Position numbers and translations under genes: made by a program. Under the pieces are notes generated by a model. That model was not told the origin of the DNA. It saw only the letters and a list, made by a program, of their open reading frames with translations, and made no database searches. DNA of 64,000 nucleotides, taken from positions 14,971 through 78,970 of the forward strand of contig CAZAMP010000018.1 in NCBI GenBank assembly GCA_964486455.1, read 5' to 3'. The DNA comes from an uncultured bacterium (GTDB lineage: Bacteria > Eisenbacteria > RBG-16-71-46 > CAZAMP01). Shown piece after piece: positions 590-39,627 of the stretch (positions are counted from its first letter, which is position 1; each line of letters starts with the position of its first letter).

Positions 590-1702
590 CTATCTTCGGA
601 AGCGGCCCTTGAGCGCACCCCACCCCGTTCGCTCAATCGGCACCGACGTGTCGACGAGCCCCACGTACTCTTCATCGATCGCGTCGCGCGGCATGGCACC
701 GCACTCGGCAAGCACCGCGGCGAGCGCGGCGGCGGCCGCCATCTCGGTGACGGGCGGTGCGGGCCAGCGAGTCTCCGCCGTCGCGTCGATCTGAGTTTCC
801 GTTGGGATGATGTTCCCCTCCAGATAGACCTCGGTGCTCGACGTCAGGACGATCGCGAGACTCTCGTCGCTCCGTTCACCCGGCGCGTAGACGTTCTTGA
901 CGAGATTGCCCATCGCGTAGTGGCGAAAGCGGGTCCCGTAGCCGGGGTCGCCTCCCCAATCGTCAACGGGCGGGTCCCAATCGGCGACGACGTTGTTCAC
1001 GAGATCGACGACGCCACAGTCGTGAATCTGCGGGTTTCGTTCGTCGCCGAGGACCAGCAGGTTGTGGTGGATCGATATCCGCTCGCACACGCACTCAGGG
1101 CACTCGCCCTGGTAGTGCCGATAGACGTACATGTTCTTGTGGTTGTCGGCCAGCAGGCACCACTGCACGGTGATGTCGCGCGCATCCTCGATGATGTCGA
1201 TGTTCCCGTCGCCCGCCCGCCGGAACGAGCAGTGATCGATGACGATGTCATGGGCGCCCCGCCCGATCTGGAGATTGTCGTGTCCGCCGTCGAAGCGGAG
1301 ATGGTGCAGGACGAAGTCGTGTGCCGTGTCGGGAGCGGTTGAAACCAGCCGGATCAGATCGAACGCACCGGGCACCGGCGGGCTGATCGTGATCCCGGGG
1401 TCGGGAGCGGTCGAGCCGTCGATCGTGACGTGATGATTGGTCAAGCGGATGGGCGACTCGAGGACGATCGTCCCACTGACGGCGAACCGTATGTCCCGAT
1501 TGGACTCCGAAAGGGCGTCCCGGAGTGTGCCGGGACCGTCGTCCGCGAGGCTGTCGACCACATAGACTGTTCCGCCCGCCCCGCCCTCGGTGTCGGCGCC
1601 GAACCCCTCCAGCGGCCGCCCCCCCAGCGGATCGGCGAACGGGGCGCTGACCCCAACCACAAGCCACGCAAGCAGTAACGCGCTACAGGATTTTTCCCGC
1701 AC
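590..1702 (-). CDS. Secreted right-handed beta-helix protein, pectate-lyase (PL1)-like polysaccharide lyase or epimerase candidate
   Basis: N-terminal signal peptide (MREKSCSALLLAWLVVGVSA). Repetitive beta-helix rungs (NIDIIEDARDITVQWC, HHNLLVLGDERNPQ, VVDLVNNVV) resemble the PL1 catalytic region. Family assigned by motif recall only. Confidence 0.5.
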   Translation of the reverse strand: MREKSCSALLLAWLVVGVSAPFADPLGGRPLEGFGADTEGGAGGTVYVVDSLADDGPGTLRDALSESNRDIRFAVSGTIVLESPIRLTNHHVTIDGSTAPDPGITISPPVPGAFDLIRLVSTAPDTAHDFVLHHLRFDGGHDNLQIGRGAHDIVIDHCSFRRAGDGNIDIIEDARDITVQWCLLADNHKNMYVYRHYQGECPECVCERISIHHNLLVLGDERNPQIHDCGVVDLVNNVVADWDPPVDDWGGDPGYGTRFRHYAMGNLVKNVYAPGERSDESLAIVLTSSTEVYLEGNIIPTETQIDATAETRWPAPPVTEMAAAAALAAVLAECGAMPRDAIDEEYVGLVDTSVPIERTGWGALKGRFRR

Positions 1703-1742
1703 TTCCGATAACTCCTATTGATGGCGCCGGTTCACGCCGGCG

Positions 1743-2906: not shown

Positions 2907-2979
2907 TTGCACCGGCCGTGCTTTGGCCATAGTGTGACACGTCTCGTACGATCATCACCGCTTCCGGAGTGACACGTTC

Positions 2980-4428
2980 ATGAGGCTCGCGCAAACGGCC
3001 ACGTGGCTCGCGATCGGCCGGAGTATCAACGCCGCGTCGTCACTCATCCTGCCGATCGTCCTCGTTCGGATTCTCACTCAGGACGACTTCGGGTTCTTCA
3101 AGCAGGTCACTCTGGCGGCCACGCTGCTCGTGCCGTTCCTGCCGCTGGGTCTCGACCGGAGCGTGACGTATTTCGTTCCGCGAAAGGGCAGTCGGCCCGC
3201 GGAAGAGATCTCGACCGCCATCCTAGCCGCGCTGGTGCCGTCCGCGCTGGTTACCGCGGCGGCGCTCCTGTTTCCGTCCACGTTCGCGACGCTGTTCGGT
3301 TGCTCCGGGGCTCTCTACATTGTCGGCGCGACCGTCGCCTCGGCGGTGTCGACGGTCTTCTTCGAGCTCGCCAACCGATCGTTGATCGCCGTCGGCGCCG
3401 CTCGGACCGCCGCGCTTCTACCCGCCGCGGTCGGCGTGCCGCGGGCGATCGGGCTGGTCGCAGTCGCGCTCGTGGCCCGGTCGCTGTCGGCAATCTGCCT
3501 CGCGATCATCGGCTTCGCGCTGCTCTACGTCGTGGTGGGTATGTTCGCGCTCGTCCGGCGTGGCTACCTTCGCCCGGCGCTCGATCTGAAAGTCTTGGCC
3601 CGACAGTTACGCTACGGCGGAATGCTGGCGGTGATCACCGTCGTTCAGATCTGGTCCGTTCGCATCGATCGGTTTCTCGTATCCGTCGGACTCAGCCCCG
3701 CGCTGTTCGCGATCTACTCCGTCGGAAAGACACAGATCCCGTTCGTCAGGATCATTCCGGGCTCGCTCGGGTCGGCGACCGCGCCGCGCTACTCGAAGCT
3801 CGAATCGGAAGGCCGTCACCAGGACATGGCGGTCCTCTGGCGAAAGAGCGCCGAAGCACTGCTCCCGCTCTACTTCCTCATCGTCACGTTCCTCGCGGCC
3901 ACCGCGCACTGGACGGTCCCAATCGTCTTCACGGCCGACTACGCGGATGCCATCCCCATCTTTCGCGTCTTCGTGGTGACATACATCTTTCACGCGCTCG
4001 TCGGTATCGAACCGATTCTCCGAGCGCTCGCGGCCCTTCGCTTTCTTTTCATCACCGTGATGATCTCGTTGCCGGTTCGAATCGGACTCGGACTGGCGGC
4101 GCTCGAGATGGGCTCACTCTGGTTTCTGGCCGGCACGCAGATCATCGTCAACACCGTTCTGTTTGCCATTCGTCTCCTCTACATTCGCCGCCGCCTGGAC
4201 GTGACGTGGTCGACGCTGGTGCCGCACCACGGGCTGATCCTCCCGGCGCTGGCCTCCGCGGTCGGGTTGCTCATGACCTGGGGGATCCACGCGTGGCGCG
4301 GGGAAGAACCGATAACGGCGCTCATCGTGTCGGGCGTGGGATGGTGCGTGCTGACGGTCGTGGTTCTCTGGCGTCAGGGCCTCTGGAGACAGATCCTCTC
4401 GAGAAAGCGGGAAAGCCGATCGGCCTGA
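2980..4428 (+). CDS. Wzx-like polysaccharide flippase (MOP/PST family multi-TM protein)
   Basis: 482 aa, about 12-14 hydrophobic helices, N-terminal region typical of polysaccharide biosynthesis protein family. The overlapping +590 aa frame (3003..4775) is a GC-rich shadow ORF. Confidence 0.7.
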   Translation: MRLAQTATWLAIGRSINAASSLILPIVLVRILTQDDFGFFKQVTLAATLLVPFLPLGLDRSVTYFVPRKGSRPAEEISTAILAALVPSALVTAAALLFPSTFATLFGCSGALYIVGATVASAVSTVFFELANRSLIAVGAARTAALLPAAVGVPRAIGLVAVALVARSLSAICLAIIGFALLYVVVGMFALVRRGYLRPALDLKVLARQLRYGGMLAVITVVQIWSVRIDRFLVSVGLSPALFAIYSVGKTQIPFVRIIPGSLGSATAPRYSKLESEGRHQDMAVLWRKSAEALLPLYFLIVTFLAATAHWTVPIVFTADYADAIPIFRVFVVTYIFHALVGIEPILRALAALRFLFITVMISLPVRIGLGLAALEMGSLWFLAGTQIIVNTVLFAIRLLYIRRRLDVTWSTLVPHHGLILPALASAVGLLMTWGIHAWRGEEPITALIVSGVGWCVLTVVVLWRQGLWRQILSRKRESRSA

Positions 4429-5693: not shown

Positions 5694-5780
5694 CGTGGCC
5701 CCTTTGCTCGGATGACGCAAGTACCCGAGCCATCGAGATGCGCCTTGACGGCGCCGGAGCGCATGATGACACTGGCCGCC

Positions 5781-6941
5781 ATGCGTAAGAAACGACTCGA
5801 ACGACTTCGGATCGGATTCGTGCTCGGCGAGCTCGGGATCGGCGGCGCCGAGCGGCAGCTCCTGAAGAAAATCGCCATACTGCAAGACCAAGGCGTGGAC
5901 TGCTTCGTGGTCACGCTTTCGAGCGGCGGCGATCTGACTCAGGCCTTCGCCGCGGAGAAGATCCGGCTTCACGAGATCCCTCGCGGGCACTCGCTCGAGG
6001 TCAGCCGGATGTGGAATCTCATCGGCATCCTGCTCCGCGAGCGACCCACCATCGTTCACGGGGAACTGTACGACGCGGGCGCCTACGCGCGTATCGCCTC
6101 GATGATGGCGGGCGTTCCGATTCGGATCCAGGCGATCCGGTCGACCTACCCGCGCCTCAATCCGAAGTACCGCCTTGCGGAGGAGATTCTCAAGTGGTTC
6201 ACCGACGCCTACATCGTGAACGCCGCCGCGATCAAGCGACGCACGATAGAGCTCCATCGTGTGAATTCGAAAAAGGTGCACGTCGTCTACAACCTCTACG
6301 ACGCCACCGAAGCGCCGCGCTGCACACCGGATGAGATGCGCCGCGAGCTGGGGCTCGTGCCCGGCCGCAAAGTCATCGGTCTCCTCGGCTCGTTCTCCCC
6401 CGAGAAGAACCACGAGCTGTTCTTGCGGTTCGCCCGCGCGCTTATCGATCGCGGAACGGACGCGGAGTTCATGCTCATCGGGGACGGCAAGCTCAGGCCG
6501 AAGATCGAGGCGCAGATTGCGCAGCTCGACCTCGGGTCGCGCGTGCGTCTCCTCGGACTTCGGAGGGACGTGCCCGATCTGCTTCAGGTCCTCGACATCT
6601 CGGTGAACTGCTCGTTTCGCGAAGGGCTCAACAACGCCATCCTGGAATCGCTGGCACTGGGCATCCCCGTTCTGGGGAGCCACGTCGGCGGCACACCCGA
6701 GCTGGTCGAGACGGGGGTGAACGGCGAGACGTTCGAGTCGGACTCGCTCGACGACATGATCGCCAAGGCAGAGATGATGATCCCGCGGATCGAGGAGTAC
6801 CGCGCCCGGATCCGCGAGAACCGCGGAGACTTTCTGCAACGGTTTCAGGCGGACGAGGTCACCCGCCAGACCCTGGACATCTACCTTAAGTGCTTGTCAA
6901 ATCGAGGGTTCGAGCTGGAGAGCCCACCCCACGCCCACTGA
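5781..6941 (+). CDS. GT4 glycosyltransferase (GT-B fold)
   Basis: RIGFVLGELGIGGAERQ N-terminal motif and EGLNNAILESLALGIPVLGSHVGGTPELV C-terminal motif (E-x7-E region). Start trimmed to the ATG at 5781; alternatives are 5712 and 5763. Confidence 0.75.
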   Translation: MRKKRLERLRIGFVLGELGIGGAERQLLKKIAILQDQGVDCFVVTLSSGGDLTQAFAAEKIRLHEIPRGHSLEVSRMWNLIGILLRERPTIVHGELYDAGAYARIASMMAGVPIRIQAIRSTYPRLNPKYRLAEEILKWFTDAYIVNAAAIKRRTIELHRVNSKKVHVVYNLYDATEAPRCTPDEMRRELGLVPGRKVIGLLGSFSPEKNHELFLRFARALIDRGTDAEFMLIGDGKLRPKIEAQIAQLDLGSRVRLLGLRRDVPDLLQVLDISVNCSFREGLNNAILESLALGIPVLGSHVGGTPELVETGVNGETFESDSLDDMIAKAEMMIPRIEEYRARIRENRGDFLQRFQADEVTRQTLDIYLKCLSNRGFELESPPHAH

Positions 6942-7091
6942 CCGGCAGAGCCACGGCAGCTTCGCTTCATGCTCCCCTCTTCTGTCTTGCCCCTGTCCCT
7001 GGAGGCCACGAATTTATCCGATAACAAAGACAGCGTACAGTGATCACACTGAAACCAACGATCCTCACACCATGACAGGCCGACCGGAGTA

Positions 7092-7301
7092 GTGAGCAAA
7101 ATGTATCCGATCGCAGAACTCCTCGGCATCGCGGGAGCAATCCTCGGTCTGGTTTGCACCTTCGCCATCTGGCGAAAGGTGCGCTACGAGAGACAGCATC
7201 TCGAAAGCTCTGACCTTGCCGGGAAGCGGCTAGTCAAGCCCGCTGGATTTGAGGATCTCAAGAATGCCCTGGACGCCACCGAAGATCGATGGCGACGGTG
7301 A
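7092..7301 (+). CDS. Small hypothetical membrane protein (one TM)
   Basis: 69-aa ORF in a lower-GC island with a single hydrophobic helix, followed by two hairpins. Weak support only. Confidence 0.25.
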   Translation: MSKMYPIAELLGIAGAILGLVCTFAIWRKVRYERQHLESSDLAGKRLVKPAGFEDLKNALDATEDRWRR

Positions 7302-7617
7302 AATCCTGCCTAGAGGTGTGTCAGGTTGGAGAGTTCCTCCAACCTGATGCATCATCCAAAGCTGGCTGTTGCCAGCCACATCGCCCGCTCCATGCTGTAC
7401 AAGTGTATGTGACACAATGAATTAGTAGCATTCGCTTGCGTGGTAGGGCCTGTCCTCAAGCGGAATCTCCATGTAGTTGCTGATGCCATCCATTTCCACG
7501 ACTAGTTGCGGTCTGGATCCTGCGACAGATACCATCCACTATCGATAGGCTGGCGGCGCGCCGATAAGACTATCGTGCTACAGCGCCTACATCATTCCGC
7601 ACTGATCCACTAAGGCC

Positions 7618-10326
7618 ATGCATAGGAGCAATCAAGTGCTATCGCGCACGATCATCATCAGTCTCAGCATCGCAGTCCTCGTCGCCGTCGCGGCGGGACC
7701 GGGCTTCGGGTTGACCGTTCGTTCGAGTCACCCGCGCATGTTCGTGTTGCCCGAAGACCTTCCGAAGGTCCGCGCGCGGTGCGCGATCCCCGACGGCAAC
7801 AACCAAGCGCAATACCCGAACGAGTGGAGCACGCATCTCGACCTCTACGAGCAGCTCACCGGGATGGTGGACGACTACCCATCGACGATTCCGGTCTGGG
7901 ACACGGCCGCCAACGGCACCAAGATGGCGAACCTTGCGACGATGTACCTTCTGAACTCGCATCGCTCTCAGGGAAACTCGTACCGCGAGAAGTTCATCGA
8001 GTGGTGGCGCGGAACGCTCGTCTACTCACGCGACCGGAATGGCGGCATCATCGGGCGCATCCTCTCCGGTAACGGGTGGGGCAAGGACGCGAACTGGTCG
8101 TACTGGACGTACGCGTACGACGCGGTCTACAACGCGCTCAGCTCCGACCATGCGCTTCGTGACAGCATCAGCACGCTCATCGGCCGGCAGGTCGAGGTAG
8201 CCTGGGACTCCCCCGACTACTACGAGGATCCGTTCTACAACGCGCCGTGGACCTCGGACGGGCTCCTCGGCGCCTGTCTCGCCGTCAAGGGCGACTATGG
8301 CGCGCGCGCGTGGAACCGCATCGAGCAGGAATTCGACGACTGGCTCGACCACGTCCATGAACGGAAGCTCGAGCAGAATCTGGCGCGGGTGTTGAACTAC
8401 CAGGGCCAGTATCCGATGTGCGGCGGCTACAAGAACCGGCGCATCAAGGAAGACGTGACGACCGCGCTCGCCTGGCGGACCGCCGTCACGGACGAGGACC
8501 CGTTCTTCGAGCACGCCGATCACTTCCGGCAGATCGATGATGCCTATCTCTGGCGGCTTCGCGCGAACTTCCGCGAGTCGGACTGCACCGGAGACGGCCG
8601 TCTCATCGGTCTGGTTGACGACACGCAGTGGCTCTACACGTATCCGTCCGCCTCGATCGACGAGAACGGCGAGGCGCTGTGGGTCCTCGACGAAACGGAA
8701 GAGCAGACCACCGCCGCCAGCGGAAACAAAGAGGTGTGGTTCCGCATCCTCTTCGACGACCGCTCGGTCCAGCGCGTGAACCCCGAGTCGTCGATGCAGA
8801 CGAACATCAAGCACTTCGGGGACCTGACCGTCGAGGACGGACGCACGTCGGAGTACACGTTCATTCGCAGCGACTGGAACTTCAACGTGAACGATCAGAA
8901 CTCCGTCTTCCTATCGTTCTTCTGCGGCCCGACGCTCGGCTGTCACGAGCACGGCGGGTCACAGGGACATCTCGCGATCTTTCGCGGCGATGACGTGATT
9001 TCGGCCCACGCGGGTCTCTACGATCGCCCCGAGAACCGTCACTCGAAGCGGTACGCCGCGCAGACCGTTTCGTACAACACGATCCTGGTCGCCGACCCCG
9101 ACAACCCGTACATCGCGGGCGAGACGGATTCGCTTCGCTACCTCATGCAGCTCGAGGGATGCCAGTTCGAGGCCGAGCGCGTGAACTGGGAGAGCTGCCA
9201 CCTGAACGCGCCGGACAAGCCGTTTCGGGAGGACTACATCCACGGAGGGGTCGACCGCCTGGAACAACTCGAGAACGGCGACACATATCTGCACGCCGAC
9301 TTCACGCGCGCCTACCCCAGCCCGCTCGCGCCCAACGACTGGCCGGACGGCGCGACGGTCGAGAACGCCACCCGTCAGGTGATGCTCGAGGCCGGGACGT
9401 TCGTCGTGGTGTGCGACCGCGTAACCTCCGTCAATCCGAACGCCGTCAAGCGTGTCCGGTGGCATTGCCCCAACCCGAACAGCTTCGTGCTGATCGACGG
9501 TTCCTGGACCGGGGGGACGCCGCCCTACACCGTGATCTACGGCGGAACGCCGGGGCAGTGGAGCACGGACGCCGTCCGGATTCGTTGGGACAGCTGGATC
9601 GACGATGTGGTAGGCGACTCCCGCATGTTCGGCACGATCCTCTACCCGGTCCCGGCCGCATCCGGCGGACCCGGACGAAAGCTCGTGCGCGTCGGCGGCT
9701 CGAATTCGTCCGGCGAGTGGAACATGGGCCGCACGTCGGGCGACAAGCCGTGCTGCGACGACCACAACGACGCGGACAACAGCTACGAGTTCTGGCTGCC
9801 CGAGGCGGAGTTCAATCAGAAGGCCCGCGCCCGAAACTGCTCGGGCGACTGCCAGACCGGCACGAGCGGCAACACCGAGCGATCGAACGGTTCCTACGGC
9901 TTCTGGGTCCTCGACACGGAAGCCACGGGCTGGAAGGACCACGTGTTCCTCCACGCTTTCGAAATCACGGCCAAGTCGCAGTCGCAGCCGACGATGATCG
10001 ACTACTTGGATGATGTCGACGCCGAGCACATCGGCTGTGAGATCCAGCTCGCCGGCACGAGCCGCATCAACGTCTTTAGCCGCGACGAAGAGCCGGACAT
10101 CCAGATCAGCTACCAGAGCTCGCTGCTCACACCGATCCAACACCTCATCGCGGACCTCGTGCCGGGACTGTATCTCGTCGAGGAACTGACGTCGGGGTTC
10201 ACGGCCCAGGTGACGGTGCGTGATCAATCGAACGTCGCGTCGTTCGAGACGCCGTCGGGCGGCACGTTCCGGGTAACGCGGATCGCGGGTGGGGGCGACG
10301 TAGCGCGCGTCGTTACCGCCGACTGA
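7618..10326 (+). CDS. Secreted heparinase II/III-like family protein (polysaccharide lyase or uronyl C5-epimerase candidate)
   Basis: N-terminal signal/TM, 902 aa. C-terminal region FFCGPTLGCHEHGGSQGHLAIFRGDDVISAHAGLYD matches the His-rich motif of the heparinase II/III C-terminal beta-sandwich domain. A possible GTG start at 7636 follows an AGGAG. Confidence 0.6.
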   Translation: MHRSNQVLSRTIIISLSIAVLVAVAAGPGFGLTVRSSHPRMFVLPEDLPKVRARCAIPDGNNQAQYPNEWSTHLDLYEQLTGMVDDYPSTIPVWDTAANGTKMANLATMYLLNSHRSQGNSYREKFIEWWRGTLVYSRDRNGGIIGRILSGNGWGKDANWSYWTYAYDAVYNALSSDHALRDSISTLIGRQVEVAWDSPDYYEDPFYNAPWTSDGLLGACLAVKGDYGARAWNRIEQEFDDWLDHVHERKLEQNLARVLNYQGQYPMCGGYKNRRIKEDVTTALAWRTAVTDEDPFFEHADHFRQIDDAYLWRLRANFRESDCTGDGRLIGLVDDTQWLYTYPSASIDENGEALWVLDETEEQTTAASGNKEVWFRILFDDRSVQRVNPESSMQTNIKHFGDLTVEDGRTSEYTFIRSDWNFNVNDQNSVFLSFFCGPTLGCHEHGGSQGHLAIFRGDDVISAHAGLYDRPENRHSKRYAAQTVSYNTILVADPDNPYIAGETDSLRYLMQLEGCQFEAERVNWESCHLNAPDKPFREDYIHGGVDRLEQLENGDTYLHADFTRAYPSPLAPNDWPDGATVENATRQVMLEAGTFVVVCDRVTSVNPNAVKRVRWHCPNPNSFVLIDGSWTGGTPPYTVIYGGTPGQWSTDAVRIRWDSWIDDVVGDSRMFGTILYPVPAASGGPGRKLVRVGGSNSSGEWNMGRTSGDKPCCDDHNDADNSYEFWLPEAEFNQKARARNCSGDCQTGTSGNTERSNGSYGFWVLDTEATGWKDHVFLHAFEITAKSQSQPTMIDYLDDVDAEHIGCEIQLAGTSRINVFSRDEEPDIQISYQSSLLTPIQHLIADLVPGLYLVEELTSGFTAQVTVRDQSNVASFETPSGGTFRVTRIAGGGDVARVVTAD

Positions 10327-10335
10327 GGCCGGATC

Positions 10336-11469
10336 ATGTCGGACGGTCCCCTCAAAATCCTCTTTCTGGCCGCGCCGTCGATGCCGCACGCGCGCCGCTG
10401 GATCGCGCAGCTCCAAGAGCGCGGCCATGAGGTGCGCGCGGCAACGCTGCACGAGATCCCGCCGGGGAACGCGGACCACACGATCGCGCTCAGAACACGC
10501 GGCGACGTGTCGCGTCCGACGGGCCCGAAAGACATCCTCGCGGCTATCCGTCCGCTCCGCCGGATGATCGCGTCGTTCGAGCCGGATCTCACGATCGCGT
10601 ACTACATGACCTCGTACGGCCTGCTGGCGGCACTCGTGAACGCGCCGTGCGTCATCGGCGCCACGGCGGGCGGCGACGTGCTCGTGGATCCGTATGACAG
10701 CCTCTTTCAGCGCATCCGCAACCGATTCATCCTCGCGATCAGCTTGGGTCACGCCAAAAAGGTCCTGGCCTGGGCGCCGCACGTGGCCGCGCGTCTACGG
10801 GAACTGGGTGTTCCGGAGGGGCGCATCTTCATCCAGCCGCGCGGCGTGGACCTCGAGAAATTCAAGCCCGCTAGCGGTCGGAGCAGTTCGCGGACCGTGA
10901 ACATCCTGTCGCTTCGGCAGTTCAAACCGCTCTATGAGATTCCGACGCTGGTGCGCGCGCTCGGCCGGCTGGACGACGACAACCTCACGTTTTCGGCCGC
11001 GTTGGTCGGTGATGGCCCGGAGCATCCTCGCATCGAGGAGATGGTCCGGGAGATGGGGCTCGACGACCGCGTGATCCTCCCGGGAACCGAGGACGAAAGC
11101 GGTGTCATCGAACGGCTCGGGAAAAGTGATATCTACGTATCCACGTCGTCGACCGACGGTGCGTCGGCGGCGCTTTTCGAGGCGATGGCGATGGGCGCGT
11201 ACCCGATCGTGACGGACATCGCCGCGAACCGAACGTGGATCACGCCGGGCACCAACGGCGATCTCTTCCCGGTCGGCGATGACGACGCGCTTGCCGGCGC
11301 GATCCGGAGCGCGATAGCAGACCCCGTCAGTCGCCGCCGGGCTACGGAGAACAACCTTGCGCTCGTCCGCGATAAGCTCGATTTTCGAAAAAACATGGTC
11401 CGGATCGAGACCGAGATGATGGCGACACTGCGATCGAGGAGAAACGGATGGGACTCGAAGGGCGTCTAG
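10336..11469 (+). CDS. GT4 glycosyltransferase
   Basis: KILFLAAPSMPHARRWIAQLQERGHEV N-terminal and STSSTDGASAALFEAMAMGAYPIVTD C-terminal motifs are typical of GT4. Confidence 0.75.
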   Translation: MSDGPLKILFLAAPSMPHARRWIAQLQERGHEVRAATLHEIPPGNADHTIALRTRGDVSRPTGPKDILAAIRPLRRMIASFEPDLTIAYYMTSYGLLAALVNAPCVIGATAGGDVLVDPYDSLFQRIRNRFILAISLGHAKKVLAWAPHVAARLRELGVPEGRIFIQPRGVDLEKFKPASGRSSSRTVNILSLRQFKPLYEIPTLVRALGRLDDDNLTFSAALVGDGPEHPRIEEMVREMGLDDRVILPGTEDESGVIERLGKSDIYVSTSSTDGASAALFEAMAMGAYPIVTDIAANRTWITPGTNGDLFPVGDDDALAGAIRSAIADPVSRRRATENNLALVRDKLDFRKNMVRIETEMMATLRSRRNGWDSKGV

Positions 11470-12971: not shown

Positions 12972-13220
12972 TGCTGCCGGGGTAGCGCGATCCCGCGGCA
13001 GTACGGGCCTGGGCCACGCGGCTACGTTCTCCGCTTTTCGCCGGACCCGAAAATCCACCGAAAATTGTACCCAGGTACAAACTTAACTCACATTTTAACA
13101 ACAAGTTAAGGGATGGGCGTCGACAGGGGTGTCGGCTTTTTGACACTGCACAAAGCGCCTTGGAGCGACGGCAGGTGCCGCTCTGTCGGGTATCGCCCTA
13201 TCGAGGTCGGCGCCTGTGGA

Positions 13221-14216: not shown

Positions 14217-14252
14217 CGTGCTCCTAAACGATCTCCGGAAGTCATACCGCCC

Positions 14253-15677: not shown

Positions 15678-15930
15678 GCGATTCCTCGGTGATGGCCCTG
15701 CTGGAACAGTAGGCCGTCGCGCCGATCTCCGTCCGCGGTCGTAACGATCATGGACCCCGTGACACACATAATGATAGATCTAACTATCGACCTAAAAGCG
15801 TGCGAAGATTAGCCCAAGCATCCGAGAGATCCAAGCGGGGCTGGCGACCAATGGCATCCCCGTGATATTCAGATGGGCAACTCTACATACGATAACCGGG
15901 AAGCGACCGAGCCAGGAGTAGCGTGAGCGA

Positions 15931-17469: not shown

Positions 17470-17489
17470 GAAGCCACTTCTAGAACGCG

Positions 17490-18569
17490 CTACCTGAGCA
17501 ACCGCCGCTTGAGCGTCATCGCCTGCCGCATGAGATCCAGCACCGCCTTGCTCACCGGACGGAGTGTCTTCTGCCACGACCCGATCATGTGAACGTAGTC
17601 GCCCGCGAACTCGTGCTTGAACTTCCAGACGGTGAAGTTCGGGTGCTCCGGCTCCGGCTCGGGGCCGGGGCTCCCACCGAAGTTGTAGATTCGCTTCCCC
17701 AGCGAGCGATAGCGGCACATGGCCGTGTAGTGGAGAAACTGACCGGTTTGCGGACAGCCCTTCTCCCGCGCGGCGTCGAGCAGCGCCCCCCAGTGGTAGA
17801 TGGGATTCCCGGTGGCGCCCACGTAGAGATAATTCCGCGGCACGTCGCTGTATCGGGCCACGTAGAGATCGCCCAAACCAGCGCGTGAGAGAGGCAGGAG
17901 CACCTCGCGCGCGAACTCCTCGGGCAGCACTTCGAGCCCCTTGCGGCCGACCATCCCGCGATGGGCTGCGCCGAATGCCTCGTGATCCTCGGGAGAGTCC
18001 GTCCGCTCGACGACGAGCCCTTCTCTGATCGCCTTTCGGATGTGGCGCCGCGGGTTCTTGCCGAACCCCTTGAGCAACTCATCCTCCGAATCGGCGGTGA
18101 GATCGACGAAGTACGTGCCGAGTGGCGAGGCGAAGTCGAAGCCCGCGTTGCGCAACACCGCCTGAAGCGGCTCAGCATACGCGACCGGCGACCCTCCGAT
18201 CTGCCGGGGAATCTGGAGCGAGATCTCGACGACCGACGCGCGCAGCTCGGAAGCGCGTTCGAGGAGCGCCCCGAGAAAGCTCTCGAGGGTCGTCGGATCG
18301 GCCGGATCCGCTAGCGCGATCCCGCCGGACGTGCGAACGAACGGTCCCACGCCCACCCCGGGATCGCGGATGGCGAGAAGCGCGGCGGCCGTGAACGCGA
18401 CGCCGCCTTCACATGCGAGTATCTCCGCGCGGTGGCCGTAGAGATCCAGGGCGCGGGTGTAGAACGACGACTGCCGAACGGTCGAGCTGTCGACCGTCTG
18501 GAGCCATGCGTCCCAATCGTCGTATCGGTCGGGTGACAGAATGGTCATGTTGCTCCCGCTATGGCTCAT
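17490..18569 (-). CDS. FemAB-family protein (aminoacyl-transferase-like GNAT tandem fold)
   Basis: 359 aa with a C-terminal KFKHEFAGDY motif typical of the FemAB family. Last gene of the AsnB-CE4-GT4-FemAB operon. Confidence 0.65.
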   Translation of the reverse strand: MSHSGSNMTILSPDRYDDWDAWLQTVDSSTVRQSSFYTRALDLYGHRAEILACEGGVAFTAAALLAIRDPGVGVGPFVRTSGGIALADPADPTTLESFLGALLERASELRASVVEISLQIPRQIGGSPVAYAEPLQAVLRNAGFDFASPLGTYFVDLTADSEDELLKGFGKNPRRHIRKAIREGLVVERTDSPEDHEAFGAAHRGMVGRKGLEVLPEEFAREVLLPLSRAGLGDLYVARYSDVPRNYLYVGATGNPIYHWGALLDAAREKGCPQTGQFLHYTAMCRYRSLGKRIYNFGGSPGPEPEPEHPNFTVWKFKHEFAGDYVHMIGSWQKTLRPVSKAVLDLMRQAMTLKRRLLR

Positions 18570-19636: not shown

Positions 19637-19637
19637 G

Positions 19638-20633
19638 TTACCCCGTCCCCAGGACGCGGATCAGCATCCGTCCCTGTTCCTCGGAGTTCACGCCGAAACG
19701 GCGCAGCGCGAACGGGTCGCAGTCGGCCCGCACGATACCGCTTTGCGACGTGGTTGCGGTGCGGTAGCCGGCGCGCTCCACCATTGCCCGCACCGCGGCG
19801 TTCTCGTGTTGTCCGCTCCCCGGGTTCGGATAGGAGAAGTGGGTCACGGGACGTCCGATGACCTTCTCGAGGACGGCGCGGCTCTCGATGATCTCACGCT
19901 CGGCCTCGACGAGCGAAACGGCGGTCAGCAGTGGATGTGTGCACGTGTGCGCGCCGATCGTCATTCCGGCGTCGGCCATCTCTCGAAGCTCGTCGGCGGT
20001 CATCATGATTCCGGCATCGTCGGGACGTCCGTTTCCGGACCACGCGACGAGCGCGTCGAGGGCCTCTTCGCGCTCGGGCGCGGAGATCCCGCGAAGCCAC
20101 TGCGTGAGCCGGCGCGTGGACGCGCCCTTCGCCGCCGGGTTCGAGAGATCAACCTCGACGGGTGCCGGACACTCGCCGCGCGGCGAGAACCCGCCGGCGA
20201 AGAGCTGCATCAGCCTCACCGTCCAGACGGCGGGCGCGGGTGAAATGGAGTCCGAAACGATGTAGAACGTCGCCGTCGCCCCATGGCGGCGGAGAATGGG
20301 CAAGGCGTACTGGTAGTTGTCGCGATAGCCGTCGTCGAAGGTGATCACGACCCCGGGGCGCGACCCGGCGGGGCGACCCTTCTCCAGTCGGTCCATCGCG
20401 TCATCCAAGCTGATGATGTCGTAGTGTGACGCGATGCGCTCGATCTGCTCATCGAAGCGCTCGGGATCGAGGCAGATCGTCGTCGAGACGTAGGTCGCCT
20501 CGTCCTGCGGCGCGACGGAGTGGTAGCGCAGGATGATCGTGTTGTGTCGCGAGAAACGGACCTTCGCCACGGCGGACGAGTAGATCATGAACCGCTTCGC
20601 GCGGATCGCGGCCATCCGCATGGGTGATGGCAT
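19638..20633 (-). CDS. Polysaccharide deacetylase (CE4 / NodB homology domain)
   Basis: VITFDDGYRDNYQYALPILRRHGATATFYI (NodB motifs TFDDG and H-x4-H context) and a C-terminal FSYPNPG. Confidence 0.75.
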   Translation of the reverse strand: MPSPMRMAAIRAKRFMIYSSAVAKVRFSRHNTIILRYHSVAPQDEATYVSTTICLDPERFDEQIERIASHYDIISLDDAMDRLEKGRPAGSRPGVVITFDDGYRDNYQYALPILRRHGATATFYIVSDSISPAPAVWTVRLMQLFAGGFSPRGECPAPVEVDLSNPAAKGASTRRLTQWLRGISAPEREEALDALVAWSGNGRPDDAGIMMTADELREMADAGMTIGAHTCTHPLLTAVSLVEAEREIIESRAVLEKVIGRPVTHFSYPNPGSGQHENAAVRAMVERAGYRTATTSQSGIVRADCDPFALRRFGVNSEEQGRMLIRVLGTG

Positions 20634-20636
20634 AGG

Positions 20637-22583
20637 CTAGTGACTCACACTTTCCGCGGTTTGGGGTGACCGGGTCGATCCTGATGTCGGGCCCGATGAG
20701 AAATCCGTTTGCGTGCTCCGCAGAACATCCGTCTTGAACAGAAGCTCCATCGTCAGCACGGTCCAGAGTGCGCGCGCTTCCGCACGCGACAGGCCACCGG
20801 CGTCGGCGAACTCGGACTTGTCGAGGAGCCGCCGGACCCCCCGTCGATCGAAAATGCCACGCTCGGCGCACTCCCGCGATGCGATCACGTCCCGGTACTC
20901 GCCGAGCTTCCTCGGATCCCGGAACCACCGCGCGAGGTCGCCCACAAGCCCCCGATTCGGGATCCATTCGGAACGCGGAATGAAGTGTTCGTAGACACTT
21001 TGCTTCCAGTTCCTCCCGATCCGCTTCCCGTCGGGTCGGTTTGCGAGAAACCCCTGGGCGAACGAGAAAAGTGTAACGTCCTTCAGCGGATAGTCCAGCG
21101 CGAGTCCCAATCGGCGCGCAATGAGGCGCCGGCTGATGAGCGAGCTCGCGAAGAGATGATCATTGAACAGGCACCACCAGCTGTGCCGCTCGGCCAGACG
21201 GTGGCGGCCGACGCCGCGCGCCAGGCCGTCCGTGAAGTGCGGGGCCGGATCGAACGCGGCGCTCCGCCGCCCGAGAAGCGACATCACATTTCGGCCGTTT
21301 CGGAGCGTCCGCTCCGGGCACACCGCGATTCCGGCCAGCTCCTCGGGGCTCAGAGAGAGCAGCCACAGCGGCTCGCGGAGCCGCTTCGGTAGCCACGAGT
21401 GGATCGGGAGAAGCGCCCTGAGGGCGCGAGCGACGAGCGCTCCATGTCGCGACTGACTCGCGCGAATGGCACCGGGGCTGATCGGGGCAAACCCGGAGAT
21501 GGAGCCCGTGCCCATGTCGCCTGTCCAGAGCTGCCCCTCCCGCTGGCCCAGCTCGGAGACCGCGGCCGCCAAGAGCAAATGATTGTAGTACTTGGGTGGA
21601 AAGCCGGTGGCGGCCAGGTACGGCTCCAGGTGGCCCCGGAGATCCAGGTCCTCTTCCATGAACCGTCGGCAGGGGTAGCCGTGCCGGCGAGCGAAGTCGG
21701 CCGCGACGCGCGATTCGTCGAAGCCGGTCCGCTTGCCGATCGTAATCGCCTGGACGTCGGCACCGACCTCCGCGGCGATCGCCATGAGCACGCGGGAATC
21801 CAACCCCCCGCTCGTGAGCAGTGTCACCGCCTGGTTCGGCCTGTAGTTGACCCGAATTCGCACCGCCCGCCGGAGGAGGCCCGTGCCGAGCCGGCGATAG
21901 AGCGGATCGGAAGGGTCCTCGACCGACCCCCCGCGCATCGCGAACTCCGCCAGGTCGATCCGGTGGGGGTGCGTCTCCCCCGGCGCGACGCGGAGCATCT
22001 CATCGCAGTAAAGCCTTCTCACTCCGCGAAAGAGCGTTTGGTCATCCACGGGATTTCGGTTCACGACGTAGTCGACGACACGGCCGGCGTTGATCTCTCG
22101 GCCGAGACCTAGAGCGTCCGAGACGAGCTGTGGGGAGCTGTTCACGACGGCCGTGCCTCCCGCCGTGCCGTAGTAGAGCGTGCGTGAGGAGATCCTATCC
22201 GCGACCACGGTGACCCGAAGCGTCCCCGGAACCAGCTCTTCCCGGCTCACCGGATCGATGCCGGCGACCACGACGGCCACGAAGCGGCCGTTCGCCCGGG
22301 TCAGCTCATCCAGCACGTCGCCGGCGCCGTCACGATGGCCGAGGTGCTCGATGCCGCGGGTGCCAGCCATGTCGGGTGTGAACTCCGAGATCAGCTCGTA
22401 AACATGACCGATGACGACGATTTCCCCGTCGGCGACGGTATAGCGGGCGACCTCGGTTTCGTCGTCCGAAACCCACACGGAGGCGACGCTGGCCTGCCCG
22501 TCCCACCGTCCGACGCAGCGGGCCTTTGCCCCGCTCAAGACGGGGGTATCCTTGTCGGTCCGTGCGTGTACGAGATGGATCAC
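20637..22583 (-). CDS. Asparagine synthetase (AsnB)-family amidotransferase; N-terminal nucleophile Cys apparently absent
   Basis: PP-loop LTSGGLDSRVL is present. The glutaminase-like N-domain is present but starts MIHLVH... and no in-frame Cys2 is available upstream (a stop lies 8 codons upstream). Confidence 0.8.
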   Translation of the reverse strand: MIHLVHARTDKDTPVLSGAKARCVGRWDGQASVASVWVSDDETEVARYTVADGEIVVIGHVYELISEFTPDMAGTRGIEHLGHRDGAGDVLDELTRANGRFVAVVVAGIDPVSREELVPGTLRVTVVADRISSRTLYYGTAGGTAVVNSSPQLVSDALGLGREINAGRVVDYVVNRNPVDDQTLFRGVRRLYCDEMLRVAPGETHPHRIDLAEFAMRGGSVEDPSDPLYRRLGTGLLRRAVRIRVNYRPNQAVTLLTSGGLDSRVLMAIAAEVGADVQAITIGKRTGFDESRVAADFARRHGYPCRRFMEEDLDLRGHLEPYLAATGFPPKYYNHLLLAAAVSELGQREGQLWTGDMGTGSISGFAPISPGAIRASQSRHGALVARALRALLPIHSWLPKRLREPLWLLSLSPEELAGIAVCPERTLRNGRNVMSLLGRRSAAFDPAPHFTDGLARGVGRHRLAERHSWWCLFNDHLFASSLISRRLIARRLGLALDYPLKDVTLFSFAQGFLANRPDGKRIGRNWKQSVYEHFIPRSEWIPNRGLVGDLARWFRDPRKLGEYRDVIASRECAERGIFDRRGVRRLLDKSEFADAGGLSRAEARALWTVLTMELLFKTDVLRSTQTDFSSGPTSGSTRSPQTAESVSH

Positions 22584-22676
22584 GAGCGCGTCCTTTCGGC
22601 ATACTTATCCACCTCTACCATCGTCCTGTTCATGCCCGTTCTTGACATCGTCCACGGAGACAGGCATTACGGTGTC

Positions 22677-23882
22677 ATGAGAATCCTCTATATCGTCCAG
22701 TACTACAGCCGTCCCGACGAGCCCGGGGGCAGCCGGCCCTACCAGTTCGCCAAACACTGGACCGCAGCGGGACATGACGTGGAGATCATCACCGGCGCGG
22801 TGAACCACAAGACCGGAAAAGTCCACGAATCTGTCAGCGGTCGGCTGTCCGCGCCCGTACGGGAGGACGGCTTCACGGTGCGTCGCGTGCGGTCGTATCA
22901 CGCCTACAAAGGCAGCATGAACAAACGCTACGTCTCGTTTCTCTCCTACGCCCTGTCCGCCACGCTGATGGCCCCGCGCCGGCCGCGACCCGACGTGATC
23001 TTCGCGTCCTCGACACCGCTCACGACCGGGGCCGCGGGCGTGGTGCTCTCGAAGCTCACTGGGCTGCCGCTCGTGTTCGAGGCGCGCGACCTCTGGCCGA
23101 AAGCGGTCGTCGTCGCCGGGGTCATCGGAACGGGTTGGAAGCTCCGGGCCGCCGAAAAGATGGAGTCGTGGATCTACGACAATGCCGAGCACGTAGTGGT
23201 CGTCTCGCAAGGCGATCGGTTGGAATTGATCGAGCGTGGGCTCGACGCCGAACACGTTCACTGGGTGCCGAACGGCGTCGATGACTGGATGCTCCGGACC
23301 GATCCCCCGCCCGCGCCTGAACGAACGGGCCCGTTCGAGGTCTACTACGTCGGCGCCCACGGCAAGTGGAATCATCTCGATCGACTGCTCGACCTCGCCT
23401 CACGATGCGACGGCTCGATACGGTTCAGCCTCATCGGCGACGGCGATGTGAAGCCCGCGCTGATGGAGCGCGCCCGCCGCGACGGTCTCGCCAACGTGCG
23501 CTTCTTGGACCCGATGCCGAAGGAGCAGGCCTTCCGCGCGCTCGAGTCGGCGCATGCCACGATCGTCGTCTGCGGCACGCACGAGCACTACGAACAGTGG
23601 CTCCCCAACAAAGTTTTCGACTATCTCGCGGCGGGACGACCGATCTTCGTGCTCGGCACGGGCGAGCTGGCGCGGCTCATCGACGACGGCCGCTGTGGCC
23701 TCACGGCTCCGGCGACCGACCTCGACGGTGGGGCGGCGGCTCTCGGAACGCTGGCCGCGAGCGACAGGGCGACCCTGGACGCCATGGGGCGCGCGTCACG
23801 TTTGATCGCGGGTGACCGGTTCGCGAGGAGCATGCTGGCGGATCGGATGATCAACATCTTCGAAAACGCCCGAAGGCAATGA
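22677..23882 (+). CDS. GT4 glycosyltransferase (WcaI/WbuB-like)
   Basis: Start trimmed to MRILYIVQYYSRPDEPGGSRPYQF; the upstream 114 codons overlap the AsnB gene antisense. C-terminal GT-B domain. An alternative start is at 22632. Confidence 0.7.
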   Translation: MRILYIVQYYSRPDEPGGSRPYQFAKHWTAAGHDVEIITGAVNHKTGKVHESVSGRLSAPVREDGFTVRRVRSYHAYKGSMNKRYVSFLSYALSATLMAPRRPRPDVIFASSTPLTTGAAGVVLSKLTGLPLVFEARDLWPKAVVVAGVIGTGWKLRAAEKMESWIYDNAEHVVVVSQGDRLELIERGLDAEHVHWVPNGVDDWMLRTDPPPAPERTGPFEVYYVGAHGKWNHLDRLLDLASRCDGSIRFSLIGDGDVKPALMERARRDGLANVRFLDPMPKEQAFRALESAHATIVVCGTHEHYEQWLPNKVFDYLAAGRPIFVLGTGELARLIDDGRCGLTAPATDLDGGAAALGTLAASDRATLDAMGRASRLIAGDRFARSMLADRMINIFENARRQ

Positions 23883-26278
23883 AGCCGAAGTCCACCGCCC
23901 ATCTCGCGTTCTTCCCGGTGCTCCTCCTTGCGCTCCTTGCGTCCGCCGCCTTCGCTGGTCCTTCACAGGCGGCGCCGTCGCTGGACGATCTCCCACCCCA
24001 CCCGCGCCTCTTCCTGACTCAACCTGAGCTTGCGGCGCTGCGCGCGGATTGCCTGGGCGGTTCCAAGCGAGACCTCTACGGCATGATCCGGCGCTACGCC
24101 GAGCGAAAGCTCCCCAGGAAAGGCCCGACGGACAACCCCGTCCAGGTGTCCGTCTTCGCCTTCGTCTACCTCATCGAAGAGGACATGCGCTTCGGCAAAG
24201 AGGCCGTCCTGGGACTCATGCGCGTAGTTCGGCAGAAGAAGTGGTACGCGAAGCAGGAAGGCTACCAGTTCATGCCGATGGTCTACGACCACATCTACCC
24301 ACTTCTCACGCGCGCTCAGATCGATTCGGTGATCAGAGTGGCGCGGCTCAGGGTCAAGCCCGGACACTACGCGAAGTCGCCCTACTACAACCTCGAGGCG
24401 AACGCCGCGGCGAGCTGCGTCGTCAACGGCATCACGTTCTTCGGCGACGGAGACGCGTCATCGGACCGCCACTTCCGGGAGACGTTCGTCAACGGCTTCA
24501 ACAGATTGGCCGGCGAGGGAACGCATCACCCCGACACCGGAAGCGCCGAGCTTCGCGGCGGCGTGCTCCGCACGCGCCTCCACTACGCGCGCGACGGTGG
24601 CTACCACAAGGACCGCGCATACACGTGCAAGGATCTCGCGAGCCTGGTTCACTTCGCCGAGGCGATGCGCGCTCTGGGACTCTTCGACGCGTACGCGTTC
24701 GCGCGTGACTACTACGTCAACGTCGTCGACTACCTGCTCTGGATCACACGGCCCGACGGCACCGGGCTTCGCCAAACCACGGGACAGGGGCACCGGAGGC
24801 TCACGCCGCGCGGCTACGAGGCGCTCGCCGGGATCGGGCGTCAGTTCCGCCTGGGCAAAACCGCGTGGATGATCGATAACCGGTTGCTCGGAGACGGCGT
24901 CCCGCCCGCCTACGAGGCGGTTCTCTTCTGCATCCTCTGGGATCCGATGCTCGCTCCGGAGCCCCCCACGGTCGAGTCGATGGGAACGAGCAAAGCATTC
25001 AACGGCGGCGCGGCGCGATACGTCTATCGATCGGGATGGGACGTATCACCCGAGAGCCGGGACTTCGTCTTTCACATCGATGCGTCCGACTACATGGGTG
25101 ACAACGTCTACTGGACCGTCGGCGGGTTCGAGATCTTCTATCGCGGCGCGCTTGCCATCAAGTCCGGCAACTACGCCGCGTTCGACGATCACTACGGCCA
25201 CTACAACACGGCGACCATCTCCGCGAACTGCGTGATCGTCCGTGACGACGGGCAGAAGGAGATCCGAGATCGCAGCGGGCAGGACAACATCAGAAAGAGC
25301 ATCGGGCGGCCGGAGAAGCTCGGCGACGTTGCCGAGGGGAGTGTGCTCGATCGCGCGCGGATCGACTCCGTACGCACTCGCGTCGCGGGCGGACGCGAGT
25401 GGAGCCTGGTCTCGGTCACGCTTCGGCCGAAAGCGATCTACGTCAAGACAAAGAAGGCGGAAAGCTGGATCCGGCGCGTGCTCGTCACCGACGGCATCGC
25501 GGTGATCTACGATCGCGTGAAGGCCCGCGACGCGGACTTCCCGATCAGCTGGCTTCTGCACACCGTCGAGGAACCGGTCGTGAGCGGAGCGATATCGGAC
25601 GTGGACGTGCCGGGGCATATCAGCTGGCACGCGGGAGACACGTTTCATGTCACGCGCTCGATGCCGATCGAAAGCTCACCGAACGGAGGGAACCTTCACG
25701 GGACGAGGCTTCTGCCGCGGCATGCGCGGACACGCAAGGTGGGAGGCGACGGCTATTCGTTCTGGGTGGACAGCGCGCACCCCGTTCCCGGCGCTCAGCC
25801 GATGGGGCGGAACTTCGAAATCGGGCGGCCGGAAGTACGCTACAGCCGGCGCGAGGCGGGCGCCTGGCGGCTCGAGATCCACCCCATCGAGCCCGGGCCG
25901 GCGCAGGAGTTCCTCGTCGCGCTGCAGGCGAGCGACGAGGAGTATGGCGATACCTTCCAGCTCGTGCTGGACGCGGAAACCGCCGGCTTCGTGCACGACG
26001 GCGTGATGCTCGGGTTCTCGCGTACCGACCCTCCGCCGGAAAGACCTTCTTATCGACTGCACGGCGACGCGGAGCTGATCCTGCTGTTCGATTTGGCGCC
26101 GAGGACGGCGTACCGCATGGAGATCATCGACGAGAGCGACTCGACGGGGATGATGGTGAAGGGTCTCGCGAATCTGATGGAGCTACGAAGCGATGACCGG
26201 GGATGCGCAGTCGGCGAGATTCAGTTGCCGGCTGGAACTCGGTTCCGGCTGGATCCGCTCAAGGACGCTCTGCCGTAA
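23879..26278 (+). CDS. Secreted heparinase II/III-like family protein (second copy)
   Basis: Signal peptide (LAFFPVLLLALLASAAFAGPSQA). Central region SDYMGDNVYWTVGGFEIFYRGALAIKSGNY...DDHYGHYNTATISANCVIV resembles the heparinase II/III C-domain motif. 4-nt overlap with the upstream GT4. Confidence 0.6.
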   Translation: MKPKSTAHLAFFPVLLLALLASAAFAGPSQAAPSLDDLPPHPRLFLTQPELAALRADCLGGSKRDLYGMIRRYAERKLPRKGPTDNPVQVSVFAFVYLIEEDMRFGKEAVLGLMRVVRQKKWYAKQEGYQFMPMVYDHIYPLLTRAQIDSVIRVARLRVKPGHYAKSPYYNLEANAAASCVVNGITFFGDGDASSDRHFRETFVNGFNRLAGEGTHHPDTGSAELRGGVLRTRLHYARDGGYHKDRAYTCKDLASLVHFAEAMRALGLFDAYAFARDYYVNVVDYLLWITRPDGTGLRQTTGQGHRRLTPRGYEALAGIGRQFRLGKTAWMIDNRLLGDGVPPAYEAVLFCILWDPMLAPEPPTVESMGTSKAFNGGAARYVYRSGWDVSPESRDFVFHIDASDYMGDNVYWTVGGFEIFYRGALAIKSGNYAAFDDHYGHYNTATISANCVIVRDDGQKEIRDRSGQDNIRKSIGRPEKLGDVAEGSVLDRARIDSVRTRVAGGREWSLVSVTLRPKAIYVKTKKAESWIRRVLVTDGIAVIYDRVKARDADFPISWLLHTVEEPVVSGAISDVDVPGHISWHAGDTFHVTRSMPIESSPNGGNLHGTRLLPRHARTRKVGGDGYSFWVDSAHPVPGAQPMGRNFEIGRPEVRYSRREAGAWRLEIHPIEPGPAQEFLVALQASDEEYGDTFQLVLDAETAGFVHDGVMLGFSRTDPPPERPSYRLHGDAELILLFDLAPRTAYRMEIIDESDSTGMMVKGLANLMELRSDDRGCAVGEIQLPAGTRFRLDPLKDALP

Positions 26279-29280: not shown

Positions 29281-29521
29281 CAGATCTCCTGCTCTGCGCG
29301 GGTCCCCCGCAGATACTCCCGTATGGCCGAGTTCTTAGCAGAACGCGGTCCAATAGGAAAGCCCGGGGGCCCAGGCTCGGCTCTCGGGCCACGAAAGCGC
29401 GATTCCCCGCCTCCTTCCCGCTTGTCGGCCCCTGGAAACGCAAGTAGACTTTCCCGGCCTTTCTACAGACAGGATCGGGTGCCGGAGGCCCCGTGGGGAC
29501 AGCAATCGGAGGTGTGGTGAT

Positions 29522-32218: not shown

Positions 32219-32425
32219 CCGCGGCCGGAGACGGCCGTCGGACGCCCCGTGCAGAGCGATGGTGGCCGCGATAGGTTGACGATTTTTCGCAAGTCGGTAT
32301 AGAATCTATTGACAGTAGATCCCCCTCATCGACCGATCGCCGGTGAGCCGGAACGCCTCGGCTTTGGTGTAACCGGTTACGTAACAACGGATTGCTTGTC
32401 TGCGCCCCGCAACTTCGGAGGGAAA

Positions 32426-39617: not shown

Positions 39618-39627
39618 GGCACTTCTC

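Follow-up and report, generated by a model that had tools for sequence, protein, structure and literature searches.

Three predicted exported proteins related to pectate lyase and heparinase II in a polysaccharide locus of an uncultured Eisenbacteria bacterium

The metagenomic window considered here (the whole stretch of DNA that was analysed, 64,000 nt of contig CAZAMP010000018.1 from an uncultured member of the Eisenbacteria) carries a polysaccharide locus which occupies about the first 31.8 kb of the window and extends further upstream. Three of its genes, hereafter A, B and C, are the subject of this study. A (590..1702, minus strand, GTG start) codes for a protein of 370 aa belonging, according to PDB and profile matches, to the PL1 type (polysaccharide lyase family 1; pectate lyase / VexL-like). 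B (7618..10326, plus strand, 902 aa) and C (23879..26278, plus strand, 799 aa) code for divergent heparinase II-like proteins, PL21-like in the case of B, which were recognised from profile and fold matches. The GC content of the window is approximately 64%, and frame-specific GC at third codon positions (GC3) resolves one clear gene set across it. The reading frames of A, B and C have coding-type GC3 values (0.83-0.87), and the gene calls on public contig copies include each of them (the window matches JGI Ga0118727_1000820 and several ENA scaffolds). At all three N-termini there is a charged n-region and, after it, a hydrophobic stretch. An N-terminal hydrophobic 12-mer is present in 94% of 117 A-family members, and the leaders of the B and C relatives stop just before a conserved HPR motif. 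Judged from these N-terminal features and their retention in relatives, A, B and C are predicted to be exported. Together with the PL1 and heparinase II homologies described below, this bears out the proposal of the initial annotation that three exported proteins with polysaccharide lyase folds are encoded in a biosynthetic locus.

At threshold, Pfam returned no match for A, B or C. For A, a single-sequence search against the PDB gave pectate lyase 9buj (6e-17), VexL (2e-16), Thermotoga Pel (5e-4) and Jun a 1 (1e-3). A profile built from 30 members of the A family matched 18 PDB sequences. All are of PL1 type (PelC, PelA, PelE, pectin lyase B, Jun a 1 and VexL), and epimerase entries of AlgG or AlgE were absent. 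The PF00544 domain is found on many A-family members, and on A itself there is no match to it at E<=0.01. Over the 118 family members, D165 and P224 are strictly conserved (118/118), D142 and R222 are each found in 117/118, D169 in 108/118 and K189 in 100/118 (85%); D156-H157 and Q225 are conserved as well. R222 and P224 form the R-x-P motif of PL1 enzymes, whose Arg acts as the Bronsted base. We take D142, D165 and D169 to be equivalent to the Ca2+ ligands of PelC and BsPel (PL1 motif, D ... DGxxD). In the HMMER alignment of A with VexL, R222, K189 and D165 correspond to R232, K195 and D171, respectively. R232 is the proposed base of VexL, for which the R232A and R232K mutants are inactive (PMC6003464). 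These matches place A in the PL1 pectate-lyase superfamily, and its fold is predicted from homology to be a parallel beta-helix that is right-handed. Since the acidic triad, the lysine and the catalytic arginine are all conserved, A is predicted to be a PL1-type beta-eliminase with a complete catalytic set rather than an epimerase like AlgG. The analogy with AlgG that had been drawn for this protein was thus not borne out.

B gave neither a PDB match as a single sequence nor a Pfam match, C reached 15.9 bits for the Pfam family DUF4962 (cut-off 28.7 bits), and the gathering thresholds of PF07940 and PF16332 (Heparinase II/III) were reached by neither. With family profiles, C matches heparinase II (HepII; the reference sequence used is 100% identical to 2fuq_A) at 2.2e-25 in hmmsearch and 99.9% over 666 columns in hhalign, and the corresponding values for B are 9.4e-14 and 99.7% over 704 columns. 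B and C are homologues of one another as well (hhalign 98.4%, 681 columns). The identity of both to HepII is only ~15-23%. These alignments indicate that B and C are full-length, collinear homologues of heparinase II (PL21), and the three-domain architecture of PL21 (alpha/alpha toroid, beta-sheet domain and C-terminal beta-sandwich) is recovered. The fold matches of the B model support HepII, which is clearly ahead of human dermatan-sulfate (DS) epimerase 1 (DS-epi1) in every comparison. The C model, built from a six-sequence alignment, is poor (predicted local distance difference test score, pLDDT, of 56) and was used for fold ranking only; Foldseek placed HepII at the top with it (1.4e-16) and DS-epi1 fifth. 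When 1.84 billion representatives were searched exhaustively with B (phmmer), 12 matches lay below 1e-30 and 61 below 1e-3, and the remote matches carry Hepar_II_III_C, DUF4962 and HepII_C domains (PF07940, PF16332, PF18675). A word-indexed search found only two relatives of B and five of C, to which a metagenome scan added one more for C. The sole B relative among GTDB species representatives is from a Candidatus Eiseniibacteriota metagenome-assembled genome, and the label Eisenbacteria is found on some proteins of the A family. The families of B and C are therefore very rare, uncharacterised variants of the heparinase II fold, with the altered active sites described below. A literature search for heparinase-like genes in biosynthetic clusters gave nothing useful.

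Residues of B and C were mapped onto HepII using hhalign and MAFFT alignments; the C-HepII alignment is ambiguous near His202, where the assignment was made through the B-C alignment and the column of 19 canonical family members. We take the Zn2+ ligands of HepII to be His408, Asp425 and His451, and none of these columns is conserved in B or C. The description of the metal site in PMC8006597 agrees with those ligands. The catalytic set of HepII is His202, Tyr257 and His406 with Glu205, and the PL12, PL35, PL17 and PL39 enzymes use a Tyr together with a His of the beta-domain, with Asn as the neutraliser (PMC12088678). The Tyr257 column is occupied by Y271 in B and Y248 in C, invariant in both cases, and the column of Tyr429, the second residue of a double-Tyr motif, by Y468 and Y432, respectively. 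The equivalent of His406 is H443 in B, invariant in its family, and C has no His at this place (G-D-N/Y). In the His202 column (canonical "x-H-N"), B has Y207 and C has Y170 followed by an invariant N171, and in the Glu205 column they have P210 and E173. Y170-N171, E173, Y248 and Y432 are the conserved positions of C. B could plausibly hold a Tyr/His/Asn lyase set of the PL12/PL35 kind (Tyr271, His443, Asn208); conservation of Asn208 does not extend to the whole B family. C appears to be without one of the usual bases. Because of the missing His406 (C) and the missing His202 and metal site (both), canonical HepII chemistry is not assured for either protein. The comparison of lyase with epimerase residues that had been suggested for the three proteins thus gives a full lyase set for A and a departure from the HepII set for both B and C.

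The heparinase fold is indeed common to a C5-epimerase, as had been noted: human DS-epi1 has the HepII fold, retains all HepII catalytic residues (H205, Y261, H450 and Y473) and the metal site, and its authors argue that minute changes turn a lyase into an epimerase (PMC8006597). Since DS-epi1 keeps all the lyase residues, residue conservation cannot separate lyase from epimerase for B and C, and strict conservation of the beta-elimination residues, which the initial annotation had named as evidence against epimerisation, does not discriminate either. The complete DS-epi1 set (His205/Tyr261/His450/Tyr473 with a Mn2+ site) is found in neither B nor C.

Both heparinase II-like genes are closely associated with genes for family 4 glycosyltransferases (GT4). 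A GT4 gene (10336..11469, plus strand; Pfam Glycos_transf_1 / Glyco_transf_4) begins 9 nt after the stop codon of B, and the start of C overlaps by 4 nt (ATGA) the stop of the upstream, WcaI-like GT4 gene (22575..23882, plus strand; identified with Pfam and NCBIfam, 435 aa in the public gene call). Read from this spacing and overlap, B and C are probably transcriptionally tied to the GT4 genes, B being the apparent first gene of a B-GT4-acyltransferase operon. The promoter of B probably lies in a lower-GC gap of 676 bp (6942..7617), on the other side of which is a further GT4 gene (5712..6941, plus strand; identified with Pfam, the best NCBIfam match being a PEP-CTERM/XrtA stp2-like glycosyltransferase, below cut-off). 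An open reading frame of 66 aa with one transmembrane (TM)-like segment (7101-7301) lies inside the gap and is also among the gene calls of public contig copies (L005). An Rfam scan of the window, this gap included, gave no family match.

A similar association is seen for relatives at other loci. Three of the four B-family relatives have GT4 genes as immediate neighbours, and the order B-then-GT4 recurs in L004 of GCA_975963955.1 (PGA_cap, B relative, GT4, acyltransferases) and in L010 (GT4, AsnB-like, B relative, GT4, flippase), where the AsnB-like gene is directly upstream of the B relative. In L011 the B relative follows two GT4 genes, and the fourth one (L015) adjoins a DUF4301 gene and an epimerase gene, with two GT4 genes ~5 kb away. 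Likewise, three of the four C-family relatives lie beside GT4 genes and/or genes coding for deacetylases of carbohydrate esterase family 4 (CE4): between GT4 genes in L007, which also has a priming transferase and a flippase; with a CE4 gene directly upstream and a second one downstream in L009; and in the order GT4, CE4, C relative, GT4 in L017, which stems from the metagenome scan. The fourth (L008) lies outside such a locus. A DUF4301 gene (~520 aa) together with an NAD-dependent sugar epimerase gene adjoins both the C relative of L009 (13308-16096) and the B relative of L015 (3863-7688), a recurrence which possibly reflects a conserved partnership.

The placement between glycosyltransferase genes put forward in the initial annotation thus applies directly to B and C and not to A, which stands alone on its strand between two opposite-strand Acetyltransf_6 genes. 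The distance from A to the flippase and GT4 genes is 1.3-4 kb. A promoter and terminator scan around A was uninformative. Its closest relative (61% identity) occupies the same position in the syntenic locus L004 of GCA_975963955.1, while relatives at 47-53% identity are usually found outside polysaccharide loci, in housekeeping or unrelated neighbourhoods. Since these more distant members mostly lie outside such loci, the tie of A to the locus product is weaker than those of B and C. Two of the distant neighbourhoods, on unrelated contigs, have an LPG_synthase_TM gene (PF03706) adjoining the A-family gene in divergent orientation (L013 6591-7682 and L014 6630-7736), and another gene of this family is found at the far upstream end of the locus studied here (L005 20262-21113).

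No transporters, SusC/D-like proteins, unsaturated-uronate hydrolases or sugar-acid catabolic genes were found beside A, B or C by Pfam annotation. Given this and the recurrent embedding in glycosyltransferase-rich loci, the gene context favours an action of B and C on the locus product rather than in foraging. It is very improbable that all three are ordinary nutrient-acquisition lyases for foreign pectin- or glycosaminoglycan (GAG)-like polymers which came to lie in the locus by chance. The unrelated neighbourhoods of the distant A relatives, the separate strand of A and the many secreted hydrolases encoded nearby would fit such lyases. The coupling of B and C to GT4 genes, the repeated occurrence of their relatives in glycosyltransferase-rich loci, the missing uptake and catabolic genes and the conserved position of the 61%-identity A relative in another genome all speak against them. 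The view that these proteins serve maturation of the locus product rather than nutrient acquisition therefore stands for B and C, with weaker support for A.

In addition to A, B and C, the locus codes for a Wzx-type flippase (Polysacc_synt_3 in Pfam; 2980..4428, plus strand), about six GT4 enzymes, five Acetyltransf_6/FemAB/CelD-like proteins (83-544, 1743-2906, 11448-12971, 15931-17469 and 17490-18569), an MBOAT and an SGNH protein, two CE4 deacetylases, an AsnB-like amidotransferase, an NAD-dependent sugar epimerase/dehydratase, a polyprenyl-phosphate-sugar glycosyltransferase of family 2 (GT2) with a DUF2304 protein, and a PMT_2-like membrane protein with 11 TM segments. The two CE4 polysaccharide deacetylases (Pfam PF01522) are encoded on the minus strand at 19638..20633 and 28240..29280, and inspection of the N-terminus revealed no obvious signal peptide in the first of them. 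The asparagine-synthase-like amidotransferase (20637..22583, minus strand; Pfam Asn_synthase, with an XrtA amidotransferase-like NCBIfam match below cut-off) is possibly a carboxylate amidation enzyme. The SGNH/GDSL protein (13221-14216, minus strand; Pfam), which has an N-terminal TM segment, and the MBOAT protein (14253-15677, minus strand; Pfam, with a DltB-like NCBIfam match at 162 bits, below cut-off) look like an AlgI/AlgJ- or DltB/DltD-like O-acylation pair, which is missing from the otherwise syntenic locus L004 of GCA_975963955.1. The gene for the PMT_2/GT-C-like membrane protein (26259..28196, minus strand; identified from a weak Pfam PMT_2 match and the TM count) is convergent with C. 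It lies near the genes for the PpgS/AglJ-like polyprenyl-phosphate-sugar GT2 (30595-31356) and the DUF2304 protein (31353-31769), both on the plus strand, in what looks like a module for glycosylation of the polymer on the periplasmic side. The NAD-epimerase (29493-30497) received no specific NCBIfam assignment. Upstream of the window (contig L005), the locus continues with Acetyltransf_6, ATP-grasp-like, DUF218, phosphodiesterase-family, GT4, GMC oxidoreductase and LPG_synthase_TM genes. The five Acetyltransf_6/FemAB/CelD-like genes, the AsnB-like gene and the ATP-grasp-like gene (L005 13400-14599) make up an unusually heavy set for aminoacyl, acyl and amide decoration. An assignment of the locus to an XrtA/PEP-CTERM system, to which several of the best NCBIfam matches belong, was rejected, as all these matches fall well short of the cut-offs and an exosortase gene was not seen.

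The nature of the substrate bears on what B and C could do. A search of the window, the 10 kb upstream of it and the related loci revealed neither a UDP-sugar 6-dehydrogenase gene nor any other that would form uronate, and a uronate substrate is consequently not demonstrated. The AsnB-like and ATP-grasp-like genes give a hint of sugar carboxylates that would be amidated, and a GMC-family FAD oxidoreductase gene is present in the upstream part of the locus (L005 18757-20262). Should the polymer hold no uronate, both lyase and epimerase activities would fail as explanations for these proteins, and a binding role or other chemistry would have to be considered. This leads to a further possibility, which we regard as unlikely: that B and/or C do not act catalytically on uronates and are binding or scaffold parts of the export and assembly machinery, or that they carry out other chemistry on a retained lyase fold. 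PgaB and PelA pair a CE4 domain with a hydrolase, and by analogy such chemistry might be the hydrolysis of a partly de-N-acetylated polymer. The departures from the HepII active site (His406 in C, His202 and the metal site in both), the invariant acidic residues D408 and E418 in the active-site strands of the C family, the recurrence of this family beside CE4 deacetylases (L009, L017) and the missing uronate-forming genes are all in line with it. Against it, both families keep the Tyr of the Tyr257 column and the second Tyr without exception, as the B family does His443; such conservation would be unexpected for a pure scaffold, and the characterised members of the fold are lyases or an epimerase.

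A different possibility is that B and/or C epimerise uronates at the polymer level, using the heparinase II / DS-epi1 fold to invert C5 in the exported chain without cleavage (for example from glucuronate (GlcA) to iduronate (IdoA), or from mannuronate (ManA) to guluronate (GulA)), in which case A would be the sole true lyase. To our knowledge, no bacterial epimerase of this fold has been described. In every comparison HepII is clearly the better match, H205, the Mn site and (in C) H450 of DS-epi1 are not conserved, and the uronate synthesis genes such an epimerase would call for were not seen in the regions searched. The sole known bacterial GlcA C5-epimerase is GlcE-like (PMC13308652), and the characterised bacterial DUF4962-type proteins found in our literature search are all lyases. 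On these last two grounds we rank lyase above C5-epimerase for B and C, though not strongly, and consider epimerisation improbable. Its most specific form is less probable still, namely that B and/or C represent the first case in bacteria of uronate C5-epimerases that act on the polymer and have the heparinase II/DS-epimerase fold, with a metal-free Tyr-Tyr(-His) site, co-expressed with glycosyltransferases and adding L-configured uronates to an Eiseniibacteriota exopolysaccharide. If true, it would be a pointer to a bacterial origin of the animal DS-epimerase lineage.

The explanation we favour, to which we give about even confidence, is that the Wzx/GT4 locus makes a decorated, probably acidic polysaccharide, and that A, B and C act on this polymer outside the cytoplasm. 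It builds on the folds, residue conservation, gene order and synteny described above. The product would be a surface polysaccharide or exopolysaccharide made by the Wzx-flippase/GT4 route, presumably with uronates in its chain, and the three proteins would meet it in the periplasm. A would be a Ca2+-dependent PL1 beta-eliminase with Arg222 as the base, Asp142/165/169 as the metal site and Lys189 in support, cutting mislocalised polymer or polymer needing release in the manner of VexL or AlgL. B, made together with the downstream GT4, would use its heparinase II fold with the Tyr271/His443 pair, Asn208 and Tyr468 and no metal site, and would most likely cleave or trim the nascent chain by beta-elimination. 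C, a paralogue-like relative of B on one transcript with the upstream GT4, would rely on Tyr248/Tyr432, Tyr170-Asn171 and Glu173; having no beta-domain His, it may be a lyase whose base has changed, or else a modifying enzyme, and would work alongside the CE4 deacetylases.

Several of the observations already given weigh against this explanation. A is on its own strand with no directly adjoining GT4 gene and its relatives at 47-53% identity usually belong to other neighbourhoods, while the C relative of L008 and the B relative of L015 are not tightly embedded in polysaccharide loci. C has no His406 equivalent, both B and C are without an equivalent of His202 and the metal site, the C model is of poor quality, and the uronate-forming genes are missing from the regions searched. 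A literature search for heparinase-like genes in biosynthetic clusters gave nothing useful.

The window also has genes beyond the polysaccharide locus. On its minus strand, 41999-43258 and 43449-44636 code in tandem for two exported proteins of the right-handed Beta_helix type (PF13229). They were considered as AlgG-like and dropped, as no PDB sequence match was found. Genes similar to this pair are found a few kb from relatives of the A and B families (L013 11746-14322, L014 13081-14319 and L010 676-1887). Two secreted proteases encoded on the plus strand, one trypsin-like (32309-34147) and one subtilase (36201-38396), carry FlgD_ig / Por_Secre_tail C-terminal domains. The same domain is present on some A-family relatives and not on A, B or C, which suggests that these three stay in the periplasm or leave by a different export route. 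A VIT/VWA protein pair (38517-41919, minus strand) and a sulfatase (62037-63446, plus strand) are encoded downstream and are apparently unrelated to the polysaccharide locus.

Compared with known systems, B and C are closest to heparinase II of Pedobacter heparinus (PL21, PDB 2FUQ), which comes from a GAG-utilisation context, whereas the genes of B and C stand in operon-like arrangements for biosynthesis. Where HepII has His202 both have Tyr, the Zn ligands H408/D425/H451 are absent from both, and His406 is absent from C. The other toroid lyases of PL12, PL35, PL15 and PL17 (heparinase III, GAGases and oligo-alginate lyases) are further from B and C than HepII is. If B and C are plain lyases of the cell's own polymer, they would modestly extend a known theme to a candidate phylum. 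They are also a possible source of enzymes for tailoring novel acidic polysaccharides.

Human DS-epi1 (PDB 6HZN) has the same three-domain fold and Tyr/Tyr motif as B and C, and it acts on the polymer during biosynthesis, which fits their genomic context. However, its His205, His450 and Mn site are lost fully or in part in B and C, it is a weaker structural match than HepII, and it is eukaryotic. Since animal dermatan-sulfate epimerase shares this fold and has no known evolutionary source, a biosynthesis-associated bacterial branch is a reasonable place to seek the switch from lyase to epimerase.

In the alginate pathway, AlgL is a PL5 single-domain barrel and AlgG a CASH/beta-helix epimerase. 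In the locus studied here it is the beta-helix protein which is the predicted PL1 lyase, the toroid proteins are PL21-like, and a Wzx/GT4 route takes the place of the Alg8/Alg44 synthase. The Pseudomonas AlgL/AlgG/AlgI-J-X module nevertheless likewise combines an exported lyase, polymer-level modification and an MBOAT and SGNH pair (in part from PMC6003464).

Among the closest solved relatives of A is VexL, the Vi-antigen lyase of Achromobacter denitrificans (PDB 6FI2, PL1-like), which like A is encoded in a polysaccharide biosynthesis locus and has the PL1-type beta-helix predicted for A. The two match at 2e-16 as single sequences and at 1.3e-37 with the profile, and have the catalytic Arg, Lys and Asp in common. 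They differ in that VexL belongs to a capsule system with an ATP-binding cassette (ABC) transporter, while the locus of A has a Wzx flippase and no Kps or Vex genes. In addition, the VexL substrate contacts R235 and R172 are replaced by Gln225 and Gly166 in A, and the more distant A-family members mostly lie outside polysaccharide loci. Lyases in biosynthetic loci are already known from AlgL and VexL, although it is still debated what part they play in quality control, in setting chain length and in release, and A joins this theme of locus-encoded lyases.

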